Source: a candidate division FCPU426 bacterium
GTDB taxonomy: Bacteria > Oederibacteriota > Muellerivitia > Muellerivitales > Muellerivitaceae
Reading direction: 5' to 3'
Length of the DNA: 64,000 nt
Assembly (NCBI GenBank): GCA_963847625.1
Contig: CAWKAR010000022.1
Coordinates: 1 to 64,000 of the forward strand
The notes below the pieces were generated by a model, which had not been told where the DNA came from, ran no database searches, and saw only the letters and a program-made list of their open reading frames with translations. Position numbers and translations under genes: made by a program. This document shows, in pieces, positions 1 to 7,492 of this stretch. Every line of letters starts with the position of its first letter. The first letter of the stretch is position 1.

Positions 1-88
1 TAACAAAAGTCTTTCCGTATTTTTTGTGTAGCGGCGATGGTAATTCCGCCTCTCAAGCCGGGAAATAAGCCCCGGCAGGAGGGGTAAA

Positions 89-1882
89 ATGGACGAAAAG
101 CAGCAGCAATCAGATCAAGCAGAAGCAGTTCCTTCACTTAGCACACCCATACAAATCAATTCGCATAACCCACCTTTGATGCCAACACAGGGAGAAGAAC
201 CTGTGGACAGCCTTGAAAAGCGTCTGTTTTTGGTCAAGGAATACCTGAAAATCGGTGGTTCCCAGCGATCCTTTTGCATCACCCATGGAATAAATGGTTC
301 GACCTTTAATTGCTGGCTAAAGAAGTATCGGATTGAGGGCAAGGAGTGGATGAGAAAGCGGCACAACCAATATCTCGTATCAGGACACCACGATGGGCCA
401 TTCAAGCCGGAAGAACGTCGACAGGCTGTGGAAATGTTCATGAAATCTGGATCGTCAGTCCATGATTTCGCAAGAGTATGGGGCGTAAGCGAAAACACAC
501 TGGAAGGTTGGCTTCAGAAGTACCGAACTGGAGGGCCTAAAGCCCTTGAGGGCAGAAAACCCGGTGGCCGACCCCGGCGAAAAGGAGTGCGGGAACTCAT
601 TGAGAAGGTAAAACAAGAAAATCCGGATTTTGGTTTGAGGAAAGTGAAAAATTTTCTAGGCCGAATCGCCGGCGTCAGGGTAAGTACCAGCAGTGTCCGT
701 AACGCTCTCAAAGGCAAAGGATATCCAAGCGGGAGGATGAAGAGAAGACGGGAAAAGTCACAACTACCTCGGCGTTTTGAGCGGTCTCGCGCGGGGGACT
801 TGTGGCAAAGCGACATCACGAGTTTCGTCCTCCCTCGATACGGGCAACGGGTTTACTTGACTGTGTTCCTGGATGACTACAGTCGGTACATTGTTTCTTG
901 GAGACTGGCCTTTCAACAAAAACAAGAAATCGTGGTTGAGGCTCTTCTTTCGGGAATAGACCGGTTTGGGCAACCCAAGGAAGTTCTCACAGACCAAGGG
1001 CGGCAGTATTTCGCTTGGCGCGGGAAAGGCGATTTCCAACGGCTCTTGCGTAAAAAAGGTATCCAGCACGTGGTTGCGCGTACTCATCATCCACAGACGG
1101 TTGGAAAGACTGAGCGTTTCTGGGCAACGGTCATGGAAGAATTCTGGGGACGATATCAGCCACAGGATTTAGCCGAGGCAAAGGAACGATTGGGGCATTT
1201 CATCAACCACTACAATCATTTTCGGCCACATCAGGGAATCGATGGAATGGTGCCAGCGGATCGGTTTTTCGGGGTGGAAAATGAGGTCAGAAAAGCGCTG
1301 GAAGCGGCCATGCAAAAGAACGAATTGCGTTTGGCTGTAGGTGAAGAACCAAGGAAGCCGGTATATTTGGTGGGTCAAATTGGGGACCAACAAGTGTCCA
1401 TGCATGGGGAGAAAGGGAAAGTAGTTATCCAGACGCCGGATGGACGTGTACAAGAACTAGGGTTGAATGGTTTGGGCGTGAAAATCCAGGAGGATACCAA
1501 TGGAAGAGGCCGAGAAGGGCGAAAAGAAACGGATTTCCAAGGGCCGCATGAAGAGAAAATTCAAGTTTCAAATGAATGTGGCATTGCCAATGAAGGCCTT
1601 GTGGGAAACGGCAAGTCTGCAGGAGAAGGAGAAAGCGCACCAAACGGCGGCGGTGATGTTGGAATATTGGATGGGTCGCGTCACGAAGGAGGAAGCGGCG
1701 CAGAAACTGGAAATACCACCGTTGCGAGTGTGGCAATTGTCCCAACAAGCGTTGGCGGGCCTGGCGGCGGGGTTGGTGAAGCAACCCAAGGCAGGCAAGA
1801 AAAAGATGAGGGAGGCCTTGCCACCGGAGGAGGACCCGAAGCAACTGAACAAAAAAATCCAGAACCTAGAACGGGACCTTGA
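89..1882 (+). CDS. IS481-family DDE transposase (tandem HTHs + rve core + low-complexity C-terminal tail)
   Basis: Catalytic motifs WQSDIT, LTDQGRQY and PQTVGKTERF are present, as is YNHFRPHQGI. SD GGAGGGG precedes the ATG. Confidence 0.9.
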   Translation: MDEKQQQSDQAEAVPSLSTPIQINSHNPPLMPTQGEEPVDSLEKRLFLVKEYLKIGGSQRSFCITHGINGSTFNCWLKKYRIEGKEWMRKRHNQYLVSGHHDGPFKPEERRQAVEMFMKSGSSVHDFARVWGVSENTLEGWLQKYRTGGPKALEGRKPGGRPRRKGVRELIEKVKQENPDFGLRKVKNFLGRIAGVRVSTSSVRNALKGKGYPSGRMKRRREKSQLPRRFERSRAGDLWQSDITSFVLPRYGQRVYLTVFLDDYSRYIVSWRLAFQQKQEIVVEALLSGIDRFGQPKEVLTDQGRQYFAWRGKGDFQRLLRKKGIQHVVARTHHPQTVGKTERFWATVMEEFWGRYQPQDLAEAKERLGHFINHYNHFRPHQGIDGMVPADRFFGVENEVRKALEAAMQKNELRLAVGEEPRKPVYLVGQIGDQQVSMHGEKGKVVIQTPDGRVQELGLNGLGVKIQEDTNGRGREGRKETDFQGPHEEKIQVSNECGIANEGLVGNGKSAGEGESAPNGGGDVGILDGSRHEGGSGAETGNTTVASVAIVPTSVGGPGGGVGEATQGRQEKDEGGLATGGGPEATEQKNPEPRTGP

Positions 1883-2072
1883 TCTAATGAAAGACCTGGT
1901 GAAGCTATTGAGGGAGCTGCCGGGTAATCGGGAAGTGTTAAAAAAAGCGGAGGAGTTGGGAGGGAAAAAAAAGAAGCCCAAGGTGGTTCGCCCGGCAAGC
2001 GGGAATGTTGTTGGGGAAGAAAAATTGCCGGGGCCAACGGAAGCTTCTATCCAGCCAACTTCAGGTGAGTGA
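1500..2072 (+). CDS. Overlapping HTH + coiled-coil (IS OrfA-like) protein
   Basis: HTH-like VTKEEAAQKLEIPPLRVWQL and heptad LNKKIQNLERDLDLMKDLVKLL. Strong SD AGGAGG lies 6 nt before the ATG. Confidence 0.7.
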   Translation: MEEAEKGEKKRISKGRMKRKFKFQMNVALPMKALWETASLQEKEKAHQTAAVMLEYWMGRVTKEEAAQKLEIPPLRVWQLSQQALAGLAAGLVKQPKAGKKKMREALPPEEDPKQLNKKIQNLERDLDLMKDLVKLLRELPGNREVLKKAEELGGKKKKPKVVRPASGNVVGEEKLPGPTEASIQPTSGE

Positions 2073-3015
2073 GAGGACGCTGAATAATTGGATTCGCGGG
2101 GCGCATAATCAAAAAAGAAAACAGGGACGCCCCGCGTATTCCGCGAGTGCAAGGTATCGGGCTAAGTTGGCAGTAAGGCGTCAAGTGAGGGATTTTGGTT
2201 GGACTACAGGATGGAGATCTATTGCGGCCATCCTTCGCGGCAAAGTATCGACGAGGTTGGTGCAGGAAAGCCTGTCCCAAATAAAGGCGAGACACAGGAA
2301 AAAGTTGAGGGAGTTGGCCGAGAAAAACCGGGTGAGCGTAGAGGTGTTGGCAAAAGATGTGATCTGGGCGCAGGACGCGGCGCACATTGGGCGTGTTGGA
2401 AAAGTAGCATTGCAGGCAGAAGTAATCAAAGATCGAGCGACTTTGGGTTTTAAGGGTCTGGCAGTCGGACCCGCTGCTAAAGCAGAAAATATATTGACCA
2501 TGTTGGAGCTGCAAAAAAAGAAAACAGGACTGCCTTTGGTTTGGTCGACCGACAATGGTTCGGCCTACAAAAACGAAAAATTAACAGACTACCTACGACA
2601 CGAAAAAGTGATTCATCTGCTTTCTCGACCCCGAACACCGCAGGACAATGGGGCCGCTGAGCGAGGAATCGGCGAAATAAAGGCGGAATCCAGCCTGGAA
2701 AAAGGGGTTGGATTTCGTGCTGTGCAAGAAGCAGTATCGTGCTTAGCGAAAACGTGGCACCTGCTAGATGGCCGACCTAGGGCCAACAAAGGTTATCAGA
2801 GCGCCCAGCAGCTTGAAAACAGCCTTGTGAAAGGCCCTTCGCTGGTTGATCGGGAGACTTTCTACCTGGAAGCTTGCAGGAATATTAAAAAAGCGGTACA
2901 AGGAGGTGAAACACCCAGAGAAAAACGAAAAGCGGAGCGGTTAGCTATTTACGAAACACTTGAGAAAAATCACTTGATTAACATTCTGAGGGGCGGAAAA
3001 AATTGTCGTGCTTAA
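2005..3015 (+). CDS. Second DDE integrase/transposase (rve) of the same element
   Basis: Catalytic triad motifs WAQDAAH, STDNGSAY and PQDNGAAERGIGEIK are present. N-terminal HTH VSERTLNNW. Confidence 0.85.
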   Translation: MLLGKKNCRGQRKLLSSQLQVSERTLNNWIRGAHNQKRKQGRPAYSASARYRAKLAVRRQVRDFGWTTGWRSIAAILRGKVSTRLVQESLSQIKARHRKKLRELAEKNRVSVEVLAKDVIWAQDAAHIGRVGKVALQAEVIKDRATLGFKGLAVGPAAKAENILTMLELQKKKTGLPLVWSTDNGSAYKNEKLTDYLRHEKVIHLLSRPRTPQDNGAAERGIGEIKAESSLEKGVGFRAVQEAVSCLAKTWHLLDGRPRANKGYQSAQQLENSLVKGPSLVDRETFYLEACRNIKKAVQGGETPREKRKAERLAIYETLEKNHLINILRGGKNCRA

Positions 3016-3050
3016 CAGGAAATTCCGGAAGATATTTTGTGAACACTACA

Positions 3051-3526
3051 AACTTAGCCCCAAACGGCGCGCGAATTCGTTGTACAACACCATTTACATT
3101 AAGGGTCAGGATTTGGGCAGTACGTGTATCTGACAAAACATCAACAATATAATCATGCACGGAACCAGAATCTGGCAAACGCGAATAATGTTGATGTGTT
3201 GAAGGAAGTCGAGGGTTATCAAACGTACCGGTTCTTGAATTAGCAACATTATCGTGGGCTAGCATTGAAAGAGCAAAAATAGCCTGTGCTTTAAAACCTT
3301 CTGTTAAAGAAGCGGACCGGCTATCATTTTCGCCTGCCCATGTTTTCCCAATTTCTTGATAAAGCACACCCTCTATGTATCGCGTAATAGAAATAACTTT
3401 AGTTGAATCGTCTGGGTCCTCTACATAACTTCCGGAACCAAACATTTGAAGTTGAACATCTGCGAATAAGCAAAGATTTCCGTAAAAAAACAGGAATAAA
3501 ATACCCAAAAATATTTTTCGGATCAT
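3051..3526 (-). pseudogene. Secreted SpoIID/LytB-domain-like protein, truncated by IS insertion
   Basis: Signal peptide MIRKIFLGILFLFF...FA. RYIEGVLYQEIG..W...EGFKAQAIFALS resembles the SpoIID motif YLxGVVxxEM..W..EALKAQAVAAR. The frame runs into the IS end at 3050. Confidence 0.65.
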
Positions 3527-3533
3527 CAGTGCC

Positions 3534-4574
3534 TCACCAATAAATTGGCAAATGATATATTTCCATTCCTTCAATCGTGTCAAAAAGGTAATAAACATCG
3601 CCTTTGGCGTCTATGGCGGGGAGAATATATGCGCTGGCGTAATAGTCTTTTTCAGGAGGGAACAGGAAAAATTGCCATTTACTCGTTTGGATGTTTTGAA
3701 CATATATGCCGTAATGACCTGTACGGCCTTCCTTTACGCCATATAAAAAACCATATAGATTTCCATAACCTTTACCCAGTGTTAAAAGAACCGTACCCCA
3801 AACTTTTTTATTGGTAATATCTGAAATATTTTTTTTAATTTCAGAATGTTTCTTCATTGACGCAAATTCAGGCAAGTCATAGTTAGTCTCGAAATATTTT
3901 TTTTCTATTTCCACTTTATCGTTAGATAACAATGAATCGATTTTTTGATTTTCTTTTGTACGGTCAGAATGGTGATAGATACTTCCGGTAGACAATCCAA
4001 CGTTAAATTCGCTACCCCCTTCCGGTATTTCGATTCTTTTTTTATTTGTTATTTTATTTGAAGAATTAATTATGAGAGACCAAACTCCCTTGTCTCCGCT
4101 TCTTTTATGGTACTTTGACAATAATCCGATATTTCCGTTGAAATAGTTCTCCACATTATAAGGAGAGATAGAACCTCCAATTTCATTTTCGTTTATTTCT
4201 TTGATGAATTTCCCTGTTGAATCAAAAAAGTAAATCCCCGCACTGAAAACCACACAGAATTCACCGACTGGTCGAACCAGCAATTTATTTGGGCCGTAAA
4301 AAATTTTTCCGCTGCCGTGCAAAGGCAATTTATACGAATCTGTCTTCCATGGAATTTTGACCACTAATCTTGAAGATGATTCTGGGATTAACGTTTGGGA
4401 AAATGCTCCCGTTGTCGGCTCTAATAACAAAATAAAAAATAAAAATAAGATATGGATTCGGAAACCATTTACATGATTTCTTAATAATCTATCCGGACGG
4501 ATCGTATTTGATTTTTCCATTCGATCCTCTTTCGTCTTATTAGCATGCTTTTTATTGTCATATTTGATGTTCAT
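3534..4574 (-). CDS. Hypothetical secreted protein, possibly beta-propeller
   Basis: 346-aa AT-rich ORF with SD GGAGG, a hydrophobic signal segment ending GAFSQ and a beta-rich mature region. Confidence 0.65.
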   Translation of the reverse strand: MNIKYDNKKHANKTKEDRMEKSNTIRPDRLLRNHVNGFRIHILFLFFILLLEPTTGAFSQTLIPESSSRLVVKIPWKTDSYKLPLHGSGKIFYGPNKLLVRPVGEFCVVFSAGIYFFDSTGKFIKEINENEIGGSISPYNVENYFNGNIGLLSKYHKRSGDKGVWSLIINSSNKITNKKRIEIPEGGSEFNVGLSTGSIYHHSDRTKENQKIDSLLSNDKVEIEKKYFETNYDLPEFASMKKHSEIKKNISDITNKKVWGTVLLTLGKGYGNLYGFLYGVKEGRTGHYGIYVQNIQTSKWQFFLFPPEKDYYASAYILPAIDAKGDVYYLFDTIEGMEIYHLPIYW

Positions 4575-5158: not shown

Positions 5159-6208
5159 TTATCGCAGATAACGACCGATAAACGCCGATAACAGCTTATA
5201 GTTTATGGCTTTCTCAAACTTATCGGCGTCCATCGGATTTGATCGGCGGTTCCATGTCTTTTTGCTTTTACTTTCTGTTAATTTCCGAGCGAACTTCTCG
5301 TCTTCCACCAACCTCTTTTTTATCTTCATCCATCGGTTCCCAATCGCGCTTGCCCCCACCCCCATTTTCTTCCCTATTGCCTTGTAACCCATTCCCGATT
5401 TCCTTTTCAACAAATAGATCGCCACATCCCGTGCTTCCGATTCCCTTTTACCAGCTCTCAAGATTTCTTCGGGTTTTTCACCATACATCCTGCCTACCTT
5501 CGCCAATACTTCTTTCGAATCTTGCTTTACCACGTGTTTCTGGTACTTGGGGATATCCAAATGCTTGTGTCGTTGGCCTACTTCGTGGACTTTATCTAAA
5601 AACTCCTTCCCGCCCAGGTATAGCCTTGAATACAAGTCCTCCCATGGCTTTTCTTTCTTTCCCATCCCCTCATTTACGAATTTCCTATATTCTTTCTGTG
5701 CCCTTTTTCTATTCTTTCCAAACTGTCCCAATAACCAGTCCACTTCCAGCCATTCCCCCCCCTTTTCAAGCCCCGCTGTCGCCCGATAACTGCTCCATTT
5801 CCAATCTTGTGGGTGTTTCACCATCCGGGCCCTGACCGGATTCAAAACCACATACCGGCTCAATTCCTTTAAATAGCTGTCTTTCTCCACGATGATCGCC
5901 TTATACCGCCCCTGAAACAAATGGCCATTCCGATGGTGCTTTTTGTTGAATTTCTGTGTGTATTGGGCATTTAAATGCTTCATAGCTACCGACAAATTCG
6001 CGTTTGGGGTTTCCAACATCAAATGGTAATGATTGTCCATCAACACCCAGGCGTGGCATAACACACCGTTTTCTTCAACCATTTCCCCCAACAATCGCGT
6101 GAACATCTTGCGGTCGGCGTCATTCGTTACGATTTTTCGCCGTTCATTACCACGTGAGGTCACATGGTAAACAGCCCCTTCATAATGTATCCGCTTGGGT
6201 CTTGGCAT
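5159..6208 (-). CDS. Y1 HUH tyrosine transposase (IS200/RAYT-like) with C-terminal DnaA-C-like HTH
   Basis: Motifs YHVTSRGN, LMDNHYHL (HUH), GHLFQGRYK, RYVVLNPVRA and WKWSSY are present. Confidence 0.9.
   Translation of the reverse strand: MPRPKRIHYEGAVYHVTSRGNERRKIVTNDADRKMFTRLLGEMVEENGVLCHAWVLMDNHYHLMLETPNANLSVAMKHLNAQYTQKFNKKHHRNGHLFQGRYKAIIVEKDSYLKELSRYVVLNPVRARMVKHPQDWKWSSYRATAGLEKGGEWLEVDWLLGQFGKNRKRAQKEYRKFVNEGMGKKEKPWEDLYSRLYLGGKEFLDKVHEVGQRHKHLDIPKYQKHVVKQDSKEVLAKVGRMYGEKPEEILRAGKRESEARDVAIYLLKRKSGMGYKAIGKKMGVGASAIGNRWMKIKKRLVEDEKFARKLTESKSKKTWNRRSNPMDADKFEKAINYKLLSAFIGRYLR
5161..5251. repeat. REP-like imperfect palindrome with 10-nt periodic arms
   Basis: ATCGCAGAT-AACGACCGAT-AAACGCCGAT ... 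ATCGGCGTCC-ATCGGATTTG-ATCGGCGGTT. Confidence 0.75.
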
Positions 6209-6437: not shown

Positions 6438-7492
6438 GCCGAATTCACGGAGTAAGTGCAACACTTCGCCGGAAGACTTCCGCCGGAGTTTTAAAGCCCA
6501 AACATTTCCTGGGCCTGTTATTGAGCCATCTTTCTATGGTCCTGAATTCTTTGAAGGACACTTTAGCAAGATCAGTCTTTTTAGGCAAATGGCGGCGGAC
6601 AAGACCGATAGTATTTTCCACCGTACCTTTTTCCCAACTGTGGAAAGGGGCGCAGAAAAAGGATTTTGTACCAAGCACGTGGTTGGTTTCCAAGTGGTTG
6701 GTGTTTTCGGTTCCGTTGTCATAGGTCAGACTCAGGCGGGCGTCTTGAGGGAAGCGGCATAAAGCGCGGTTGAGGCTATGACTCATTTGGCGAGCGGTCT
6801 TTCGTTTGAGCTTTCCCAACTTGGAAAAACGGCTTTGACGCTCGACGAGAGCCCGCATAGCCACTTTACTCTGACGAGAGACCATGGTGTCGGTTTCCCA
6901 ATGGCCGAATTGCTTGCGTTGATTGGCGATCTCGGAGCGCTTATCGATGGAAACACGGCCTGGGATATGGTTTTTGGCGTGCTTACGGCTATGGCCAAAT
7001 GAGAATCGTCGCCGGTGATGTCGAACTAGGCAAGGAATCAGCTCAGTGGCTTCAGCATAAACCCACTGATAGATAGCTTCAGGACCAATGGTTTGCTTAG
7101 GCCGTAGGTGACCTAATCGACCTGAAATGAGTTCTGGAGACCAGCCTCGTTTCAATTGACGACGGACGTAGGCACGAATTCGTTTTGTTTTCAGGCGTAA
7201 ACGGCGTGCTCGTTGTTGGTTGCGGTCAACATACCGTTGATGGGCTCGATGAGAAAGATAATAACCAGAACGGATAGGGGGAGCATTGCGCTTGAGTTCC
7301 CTGGAGAGGGTGGAAGGAGACCTCTTCAAGGCGCGTGAAATTGCTCGAAGGCTAAGACCCTTTCCTTTCAAGACGGATAAATGATCTCTTTCTTCAACGC
7401 TTAAATGCTTGTATTTCTTTTTCATAGCCGCATATCCTATTCATGCGGCCTTCTTCAGACACTAAGTGTTGCACTTACTTATGGAACTCGGG
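6438..7492 (-). mobile_element. IS30-family element (1055 bp)
   Basis: 27-bp imperfect terminal IRs with core AAGTGCAACAC. 3-bp target duplication ATT at 6435-6437 and 7493-7495. Confidence 0.9.
6445..7425 (-). CDS. IS30-family transposase
   Basis: Motifs HLSVEER, GHWETDT, TYDNGTE, WEKGTVEN and LNNRPRKCLGFKTP are present. Confidence 0.95.
   Translation of the reverse strand: MKKKYKHLSVEERDHLSVLKGKGLSLRAISRALKRSPSTLSRELKRNAPPIRSGYYLSHRAHQRYVDRNQQRARRLRLKTKRIRAYVRRQLKRGWSPELISGRLGHLRPKQTIGPEAIYQWVYAEATELIPCLVRHHRRRFSFGHSRKHAKNHIPGRVSIDKRSEIANQRKQFGHWETDTMVSRQSKVAMRALVERQSRFSKLGKLKRKTARQMSHSLNRALCRFPQDARLSLTYDNGTENTNHLETNHVLGTKSFFCAPFHSWEKGTVENTIGLVRRHLPKKTDLAKVSFKEFRTIERWLNNRPRKCLGFKTPAEVFRRSVALTP

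Follow-up and report, generated by a model that had tools for sequence, protein, structure and literature searches.

To our knowledge, known insertion sequences (IS) use one DDE (Asp-Asp-Glu) enzyme as a homo-oligomer, and a fixed target duplication follows from that symmetry. In Tn7, Tn5053 and IS21, which encode more than one protein per element, the partner of the transposase is an AAA+ ATPase, and the second nuclease of Tn7, TnsA, is not a DDE enzyme. Here we describe an element with two DDE enzymes at the start of a 64,000-nucleotide stretch of DNA from a candidate division FCPU426 bacterium (the window; assembly GCA_963847625.1, contig CAWKAR010000022.1, positions 1 to 64,000 of the forward strand). 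Its overlapping open reading frames (ORFs) encode an IS481-like transposase (ORF1), a small predicted DNA-binding protein (ORF2) and a second DDE transposase (ORF3). We give roughly even odds, about 0.5, to the reading that this is an autonomous IS, from an unnamed family, whose transposition requires two different DDE enzymes and whose ends are joined to separate target sites.

The two closest families each resemble one part of the element. Like IS481 it has TGT...ACA ends, and ORF1 scores 211.4 bits against the IS481 model NF033577, below the cut-off of 224 but close to it, and groups with three annotated IS481 transposases; it also passes the cut-off of the IS3 model (172 bits against 160). 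IS481 has one transposase, whereas the elements described here span 2.7-3.5 kb and carry a second DDE gene and a helix-turn-helix (HTH) gene. Like IS3, and especially its IS1447 subgroup, ORF2 overlaps the DDE gene ORF3 in the +1 frame at a run of seven to ten A residues (A7-A10), ORF3 has the IS3 motif of Lys or Arg seven residues after the catalytic Glu (E+7), and the ends begin and finish with TG...CA. IS3 lacks a second DDE gene, whereas here ORF1 lies between the ends together with the orfA- and orfB-like genes. ORF3 reaches only 57 bits against the IS3 cut-off of 160 and 63.1 against the IS481 cut-off of 224, forms a long-branch clade of its own, and has its own N-terminal HTH. The OrfA/OrfB frameshift layout of IS3 fits in gene arrangement, in A-run enrichment and in one genomic fusion, the slip itself being putative. 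Excerpts of PMC10045372 put target duplications at 2-15 bp, mostly 6 bp, for IS481 and at 3-5 bp for IS3; the family copies studied here show neither. As these two families are defined, the element belongs to neither.

With Tn7, Tn5053 and IS21 the element shares the use of more than one protein, and the predicted fold of ORF3 is that of IstA and TnsB, but both enzymes here are of the DDE type. An earlier note on this stretch had stated that an ATPase is absent, and Pfam and NCBIfam domain scans of the three ORFs between the ends indeed found none. Copies stand at deletion junctions without matching repeats, as do copies of IS6/IS26 and of other IS that delete neighbouring DNA; those elements have one transposase, their repeat loss is secondary and partial, and according to excerpts of PMC7986276 they generally create 8-bp repeats. 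A full-text literature search, with few subscription journals in its scope and ISfinder outside it, returned no account of an IS with two DDE transposases. Annotation pipelines label the genes one by one, as "IS481/IS3 transposase", "hypothetical" and "InsO family", and the element is therefore missed as a unit. It is real, active-looking, widespread and apparently uncatalogued; it would be a new class if the two-site mechanism proposed below holds.

Boundaries of the element and its two transposases

The three ORFs that the earlier note had placed in the three forward frames, with an AGGAGG before ORF2, are all present (Table 1). We determined the boundaries from other copies, using our own numbers for genomes (G), contigs (C) and loci (L). 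Contig C22 of genome G000 begins with the window, whose first base lies 9 bp inside the left end of the element, with the left flank unassembled. A complete copy in the same-genus genome G001, 93% identical to the window copy, supplies the 9 missing bases (TGTAGGGTG) and gives a length of 3,059 bp with TGT...ACA ends. BLAST of the stretch against G000 returned five copies, near-identical ones on C22, C28, C29 and C30 (2-3 single-nucleotide polymorphisms) and one on C18 at 94.5% identity, each with all three ORFs intact. These copies, which the earlier note had suggested looking for by their ends, agree up to window base 3050 (...CACTACA) and then diverge; a common end with five different right flanks fixes the right end and shows that the whole unit has moved repeatedly. 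End matrices built from 20 elements found no end-like site inside the complete elements, where inner scores peaked at 15.3 or less and the true ends scored 15-40, in keeping with the earlier observation that no internal inverted repeat was visible. The two ends differ consistently across the family, with TTCC at offset 21 in 48/58 left ends and at offset 20 in 47/58 right ends.

As had been proposed from the window alone, both ORF1 and ORF3 contain a full triad. In ORF1 this is D242/D302/E342 (codons at 812, 992 and 1112), within an rve domain (E 2e-22) accompanied by HTH domains. In ORF3 it is D124/D183/E219 (codons at 2374, 2551 and 2659), with K226 at E+7. The rve match of ORF3 is weak (E 5e-5); its predicted structure, with a predicted local distance difference test score (pLDDT) of 91.8, has a full RNase H/integrase fold that matches retroviral integrases, IstA and TnsB (9bw1, 8b4h, 8q4d and 7svw are among the matched structures). 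The two enzymes are distant paralogues (hhalign probability 97.5%, 18% identity). They differ around the catalytic Glu: all 71 distinct ORF1 proteins have Trp at E+3 and just 3/71 have Lys or Arg at E+7, which is present in 71/71 ORF3 proteins. In integrases, the E+7 lysine touches the terminal CA of their own element.

Conservation of the ORF1-ORF2-ORF3 unit

A word-indexed protein search returned 126 homologues of ORF3 and 44 of ORF2, and a profile search extended the latter to 371 clusters at 50% identity. An ORF3 alignment search gave 54 genome loci and, from the metagenomes, the best 80 of 227 matches. The family is spread over many uncultured bacteria; the host taxa include Bacteriovoracaceae and other Bdellovibrionota, Planctomycetota, Acidobacteriota, Coatesbacteria and Desulfobacterales, among others. 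We counted synteny in the 122 loci with an ORF3 of at least 200 bits, and only where the contig leaves room. ORF2 lies upstream of ORF3 in 100/102 such loci (101 counting an in-frame fusion, L184) and ORF1 in 78/80, the two exceptions (L070 and L171) being cut remnants; the frame steps are +1,+1 in 77/80. Starting from ORF1 instead (401 and 99 genomes searched), we found 37 loci, many of them elements already in the ORF3 set; an ORF3-type DDE gene follows in 36/36 with room, more distant sister lineages included. Both triads are intact in 71/71 distinct elements (the 80 less those with identical ORF3s), a count for which the search pattern had fixed only the second D of ORF3. All three genes are under purifying selection: the ratio of nonsynonymous to synonymous substitution rates (dN/dS), taken from 15 disjoint close pairs, is lowest in the ORF1 core (0.08), and it is 0.17 in ORF3 and 0.19 in ORF2.

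Outside this set, a single-protein scan of genome contigs found nothing, viral contigs likewise gave nothing, ORF2 had no match in 72,556 plasmids, and the plasmid search with ORF3 gave just four weak IS3-type matches.

The separate phylogenies of the two DDE domains that the earlier note had called for support a shared history. The tree of 57 DDE cores, which includes just six annotated references and one IS30-like outlier and whose root is unsettled, places the ORF1s in one clade (98/96) among the IS481 references and the ORF3s in a separate long-branch clade (99/98), whose nearest family the tree does not settle; the same three sub-lineages appear inside both. The ORF1 and ORF3 trees correlate (Spearman 0.83, with 0/300 permutations as high) and share 38/68 splits, and 22/28 strong ORF1 splits recur in the ORF3 tree. 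ORF3 evolves about 1.9 times faster, with a tree length of 37.0 against 19.5 for the ORF1 core. By these sequence comparisons the ORF1-ORF3 pairing is ancient and stable, and the two enzymes are very probably functional parts of one element. The suggestion of a heteromeric two-transposase element or a stable IS481/IS3-like fusion is thereby partly borne out, in the age of the pairing and in the IS3-like OrfA/OrfB layout; heteromeric assembly is putative.

Sister lineages L288/L289 (G300), L284-L287 (G499, G485) and L075-L080 keep the two-DDE plan and vary in detail, with two small HTH genes, TTA...ACA ends, or a much longer ORF3 without the ORF1 tail. The elements at L050 and L176 are 100% identical, and the flanks of L176 are absent from the genome of L050 (G061), which suggests recent transfer between hosts.

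The ORF1 tail, ORF2 and production of ORF3

The C-terminal part of ORF1 is a Gly-rich tail encoded over ORF2. Within this overlap dN/dS is 1.65 in the ORF1 frame and 0.19 in the ORF2 frame. ORF2 is the selected gene and the ORF1 tail is the overprint, the reverse of the earlier description of ORF2 as an overprinted OrfA-like gene. The tail frame is nevertheless kept open: across 69 elements, which exclude two with another frame step, we found 8 stops where 272 were expected from each element's own codon use, though these elements are kin and the independent cases are fewer than counted. The ORF1 frame is free of stops over the first 115 ORF2 codons in 66/69 elements, against about 7 stops per element in the third frame over the same stretch. 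Candidate reasons for the open tail are ribosome cover of the mRNA up to the ORF3 start region, or a linker of which only the length matters. The four young copies end ORF1 (window 1880-1882) 15 codons before the C18 and G001 copies do. Two proteins, P0206 and P0253 (478 and 501 amino acids), have the ORF1 core fused in frame to ORF2 and are rare variants or frameshift errors.

ORF2 is predicted to fold into an HTH (about residues 31-93) and a long helix or coiled coil (residues 113-139). A fold search with this model gave middling matches of the HTH type, the best of which (Z 6.3) is the Mu end-binding domain; the Pfam and NCBIfam libraries gave nothing clear.

Around the start of ORF1, the region 30-100 folds at -27.2 kcal/mol (z -3.0), and 0/200 shuffles were equally stable. 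The stem-loop pairs the ORF1 ribosome-binding site and likely shields ORF1 from read-in transcripts. A sigma-70 promoter scan gave scores at chance level.

The earlier note had started ORF3 at position 2005. The frame is present, but this ATG is not conserved, being ACG in the C18 copy. A run of at least seven A residues occurs in the ORF2/ORF3 overlap of 40/69 elements, against 3.4 expected (one further element could not be anchored), and 34 of the 40 runs sit 42-48 codons before the conserved tryptophan of ORF3, where other lineages carry an ORF3 start led by a Shine-Dalgarno (SD) sequence. The run alone is found in 28 elements, the start alone in 25, both in 12 and neither in 4; eight of the run-bearing elements have no ATG, GTG or TTG at that place. 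In L184, a single contig, the run is one A shorter and ORF2 and ORF3 are genomically fused in frame. For IS1447, excerpts of PMC6211511 describe +1 transcriptional slippage at A9, for which seven A suffice. From these patterns, the window copy probably makes ORF3 fused to ORF2, through a +1 slip at the A8 run.

Two other routes were considered and rejected. A -1 ribosomal shift from ORF2 to ORF3 would enter the wrong frame, the step being +1 in 79/80. A -1 shift from ORF1 to ORF3, which would give a double-DDE protein, finds no overlap in the window copy, where ORF1 stops at 1882 and the ORF3 frame opens at 1942, and no common slip site; ORF1 overlaps the open frame of ORF3 in 53/69 elements, and such a shift is possible in other lineages. 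Folding around the A8 run gave no stimulatory hairpin above shuffles (z -0.7 and -0.4). Prediction of a complex between ORF1 (residues 100-470) and ORF3 gave no answer (score 0.00).

Insertion sites and the missing target duplication

A target duplication had been expected for this element; the AACTTA that the earlier note proposed would have its second copy in the unassembled left flank of the window copy. Complete copies flanked on each side by 12 bp or more number 53, and at these we looked for direct repeats of up to 600 bp. None has a duplication of at least 4 bp (0/53): the longest repeat is 0 bp in 34 copies, 1 bp in 16, 2 bp in 2 and 3 bp in 1, and repeats of 2-3 bp are at chance level. 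Long duplications such as the 15-29 bp of IS1202 were likewise absent over the tested lengths. Between copies, flank matches of 5-6 bp number 8 in 6,552 pairs, against 6.4 expected. G499 is a genome of three contigs with three identical 2,766-bp sister copies; no repeat links the two sides of any copy, or the sides of different copies.

At 12 copies the flanks are cut and unrelated (L024, L028, L029, L040, L043, L050, L064, L132, L133, L142, L283 and L285). At L028 the element bridges two loci that G000 has intact and in separate places, and the continuations of both are missing from G001; the two genomes are too divergent to set the size of the loss. L029 adjoins the cut end of what we take, from its motif, to be a group II intron. 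L043 joins the start of a PKD gene to the middle of an Ig-domain gene, and at L283 a cut pcrA paralogue meets an RHS-like end. L132 and L064 break Pfam domains at positions 141 of 307 and 119 of 288, with no counterpart in the opposite flank; long frames are cut on one side only at L024, L040, L133 and L142, and L285 cuts a frame of 836 codons. In the single-contig genome G035, the flanks of the L026 copies match different paralogous loci, with the matches ending at the junction. Apart from six copies with open frames on both sides, taken up below, the remaining copies have no readable gene at the junction. Among the flanks that could be read there is no clear simple insertion, and searches among relatives of L025, L029, L043, L158 and L176 turned up no empty site; nor did G001 hold a usable one for the right flanks of the five G000 copies.

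L050 gave the impression of a blunt, in-frame insertion, but this reading was discarded: the left part belongs to the start of a PKD protein family of 2,000 residues, to which the right part shows no match, and two different genes are joined there. L026 itself (G035:C1 1402000-1421000) resembles a composite element, with two direct copies about 4 kb apart and at most 2 bp of outer duplication. Many flanks in the family belong to large secreted repeat-protein genes, regions that perhaps tolerate loss.

Proposed mechanism and alternatives

We propose that one mRNA, on which the ORF1 ribosome-binding site would be hidden in the hairpin, yields ORF1, ORF2 and the ORF2-ORF3 fusion. The fusion would form when transcription drops one A of the A8 run, and lineages without the run would translate ORF3 separately, from an SD-led start of its own. 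ORF1 and ORF2-ORF3 may then act in one transpososome, each enzyme serving one of two slightly unlike ends. Because the two active sites would not be a symmetric homodimer pair, fixed a few bases from each other on a single target, the ends could be joined to separate target sites, and the new copy would replace or rearrange the DNA between them without duplication. Whether such uncoupled joining is the main route is close to a coin toss in our estimate. The broader claim is more tentative, namely that this is a new class whose two unrelated DDE enzymes would take one end each and insert it at a site independent of the other, that every transposition is also a programmed deletion or rearrangement of the host genome and never makes a duplication, and that the tail and the slip/start switch tune the enzyme ratio.

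Several points weigh against this proposal. The asymmetry of the ends is slight (19.1 between distant left ends, 18.2 between the left and right ends of one element, 16.3 between distant left and right ends), and unlike ends are common in single-enzyme IS. Only 22 of the 53 copies have longer flanks, 31 having less than 900 bp on at least one side, and short-read contigs can pair flanks from different copies. Two cross-sample 3-bp matches among L143-L147 and one 3-bp repeat in L129 leave room for a 3-bp duplication in some lineages. At six copies (L038, L054, L058, L163, L164 and L165) an open frame lies on each side of the element, and the two may or may not belong together. No empty-site allele was found in a near-identical strain, and consequently neither the size of the lost DNA nor its timing, at or after insertion, is fixed. 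The element counts are not mutually independent, and ten strongly supported split pairs conflict between the ORF1 and ORF3 trees, among close relatives, a pattern that suggests recombination between sister elements. Finally, a duplication is equally lost when a normal insertion is followed by deletion of the DNA beside it, and all 14 deletion-linked IS150 events of the long-term evolution experiment (LTEE) were two-step, as reported in excerpts of PMC11708052.

We reject a nested insertion or chance neighbourhood of two independent IS, one IS481 and one IS3-like. The resemblance of ORF2-ORF3 to IS3 OrfA/OrfB speaks for it, and the earlier note had named an independent ORF2-ORF3 as the case that would overturn its reading; we looked for that case and did not find it. 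The element has no inner ends, neither half occurs alone where room allows (L070 and L171 being cut remnants), the sub-lineages are common to both enzymes, and the ORF1 frame is held open over ORF2. ORF1 could also be the sole transposase, with ORF2-ORF3 a captured IS3-like module for regulation, scaffolding or target capture that keeps its DDE residues for DNA or metal binding. The faster evolution of ORF3 and its scores far under the family cut-offs (63 bits against 224) would fit this. We consider it improbable, since non-catalytic subunits usually lose such residues, whereas the acidic triad and the E+7 Lys or Arg of ORF3 are kept in 71/71 elements and in distant sister clades, and the model predicts a full RNase H/integrase fold.

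A serial scheme gives both enzymes work without uncoupling the ends: one would free or circularise the element and the other integrate it, much as TnsA and TnsB divide the donor cuts in Tn7, and a short duplication would soon be lost through intramolecular replicative adjacent deletion. Clusters of cut right ends (L070; G001:C12) and the three 3-bp coincidences are compatible with this scheme; missing duplications usually go back to adjacent deletion and recombination, and adjacent deletions rise with an artificial orfA-orfB fusion (excerpts of PMC11708052 and PMC7986276). Nearly every copy must have been hit, however, given 0/53 with a duplication, whereas in the excerpts of both sources deletion touches a minority of copies. 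The young identical G499 copies also lack the cross-copy repeat that inversions or recombination would leave. We regard the serial scheme as less likely than two-site joining, and as its main rival. Far less probable is integration into breaks left by other processes, such as deletion or duplication intermediates, with the second DDE enzyme helping to join ends to broken DNA. Excerpts of PMC11708052 suggest this for single IS481 and IS5 events without duplication, but there it is an exception among duplication-bearing copies and here it would be the sole route; the G035 and G499 flanks are not duplicated elsewhere in those genomes, and the one 100% repeat at a junction is the cut intron end at L029.

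If two-site joining by two enzymes is correct, a widespread two-DDE family without duplication would be a natural asymmetric transpososome. It would make testable how transposon ends are coupled and why some IS copies lack duplications, and it would bear on the share of IS-driven genome loss in environmental bacteria. Should each end have its own enzyme, the system might be turned into a tool for oriented insertions or deletions.

Feature map and neighbouring sequences

Table 1 Features of the element and its right flank (window coordinates).
Feature	Position	Strand	Remarks
Left terminal inverted repeat, inner part	1..17	+	First 9 bp (TGTAGGGTG in G001 copy) precede the contig start
Stem-loop pairing the ORF1 ribosome-binding site (AGGAGGGG, 77-84)	48..85	+	Folding of 30-100
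ORF1, IS481-like DDE transposase	89..1882	+	597 amino acids, N-terminal HTHs
ORF1 Gly-rich tail over ORF2	1500..1882	+	Open frame kept family-wide, residues unconserved
ORF2, OrfA-like DNA-binding subunit (predicted)	1500..2072	+	190 amino acids; ribosome-binding site AGGAGG 1488-1493
ORF3, second DDE transposase	1942..3015	+	Frame open from 1942; ATG 2005, 336 amino acids; identified by triad and fold
A8 run, candidate +1 slippage site in ORF2/ORF3 overlap	1965..1972	+	Would join ~155 ORF2 to ~349 ORF3-frame codons
Right terminal inverted repeat	3025..3050	-	- strand sequence: TGTAGTGTTCACAAAATATCTTCCGG
Host gene interrupted at the right end, outside the element	3051..3598	-	182 codons, weak SpoIID-like match (E 0.017)

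No G000 contig end carries left-flank sequence of the window copy, and in sparse public-run contigs, which cover the element in pieces, neither joined ends or a circle joint nor this left flank was seen. In all five G000 copies the contig edge falls 9-16 bp inside the left end. By contrast, an IS30-like element of the same genome is assembled through in 33 copies; its transposase gene, which we assign to this family from its motifs, occupies window 6445-7425. The left-end contig breaks may reflect the assembler or left flanks that vary in the population. The right flanks of the C28, C29 and C30 copies open in sequence repeated elsewhere in G000, either palindromes like repetitive extragenic palindromic (REP) sequences or paralogous genes. 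The window also contains, at 5159-6208 on the minus strand, a 349-residue ORF that by its motifs is presumably a REP-associated tyrosine (HUH) transposase.

Remnants of related elements lie at G000:C25 55830-56116 and 58088 and at G000:C19 134360; they are one cut right end and two solo left ends without ORF1 behind them. At L070 and at G001:C12 298671-300167, two or three cut right-end remnants are clustered side by side.

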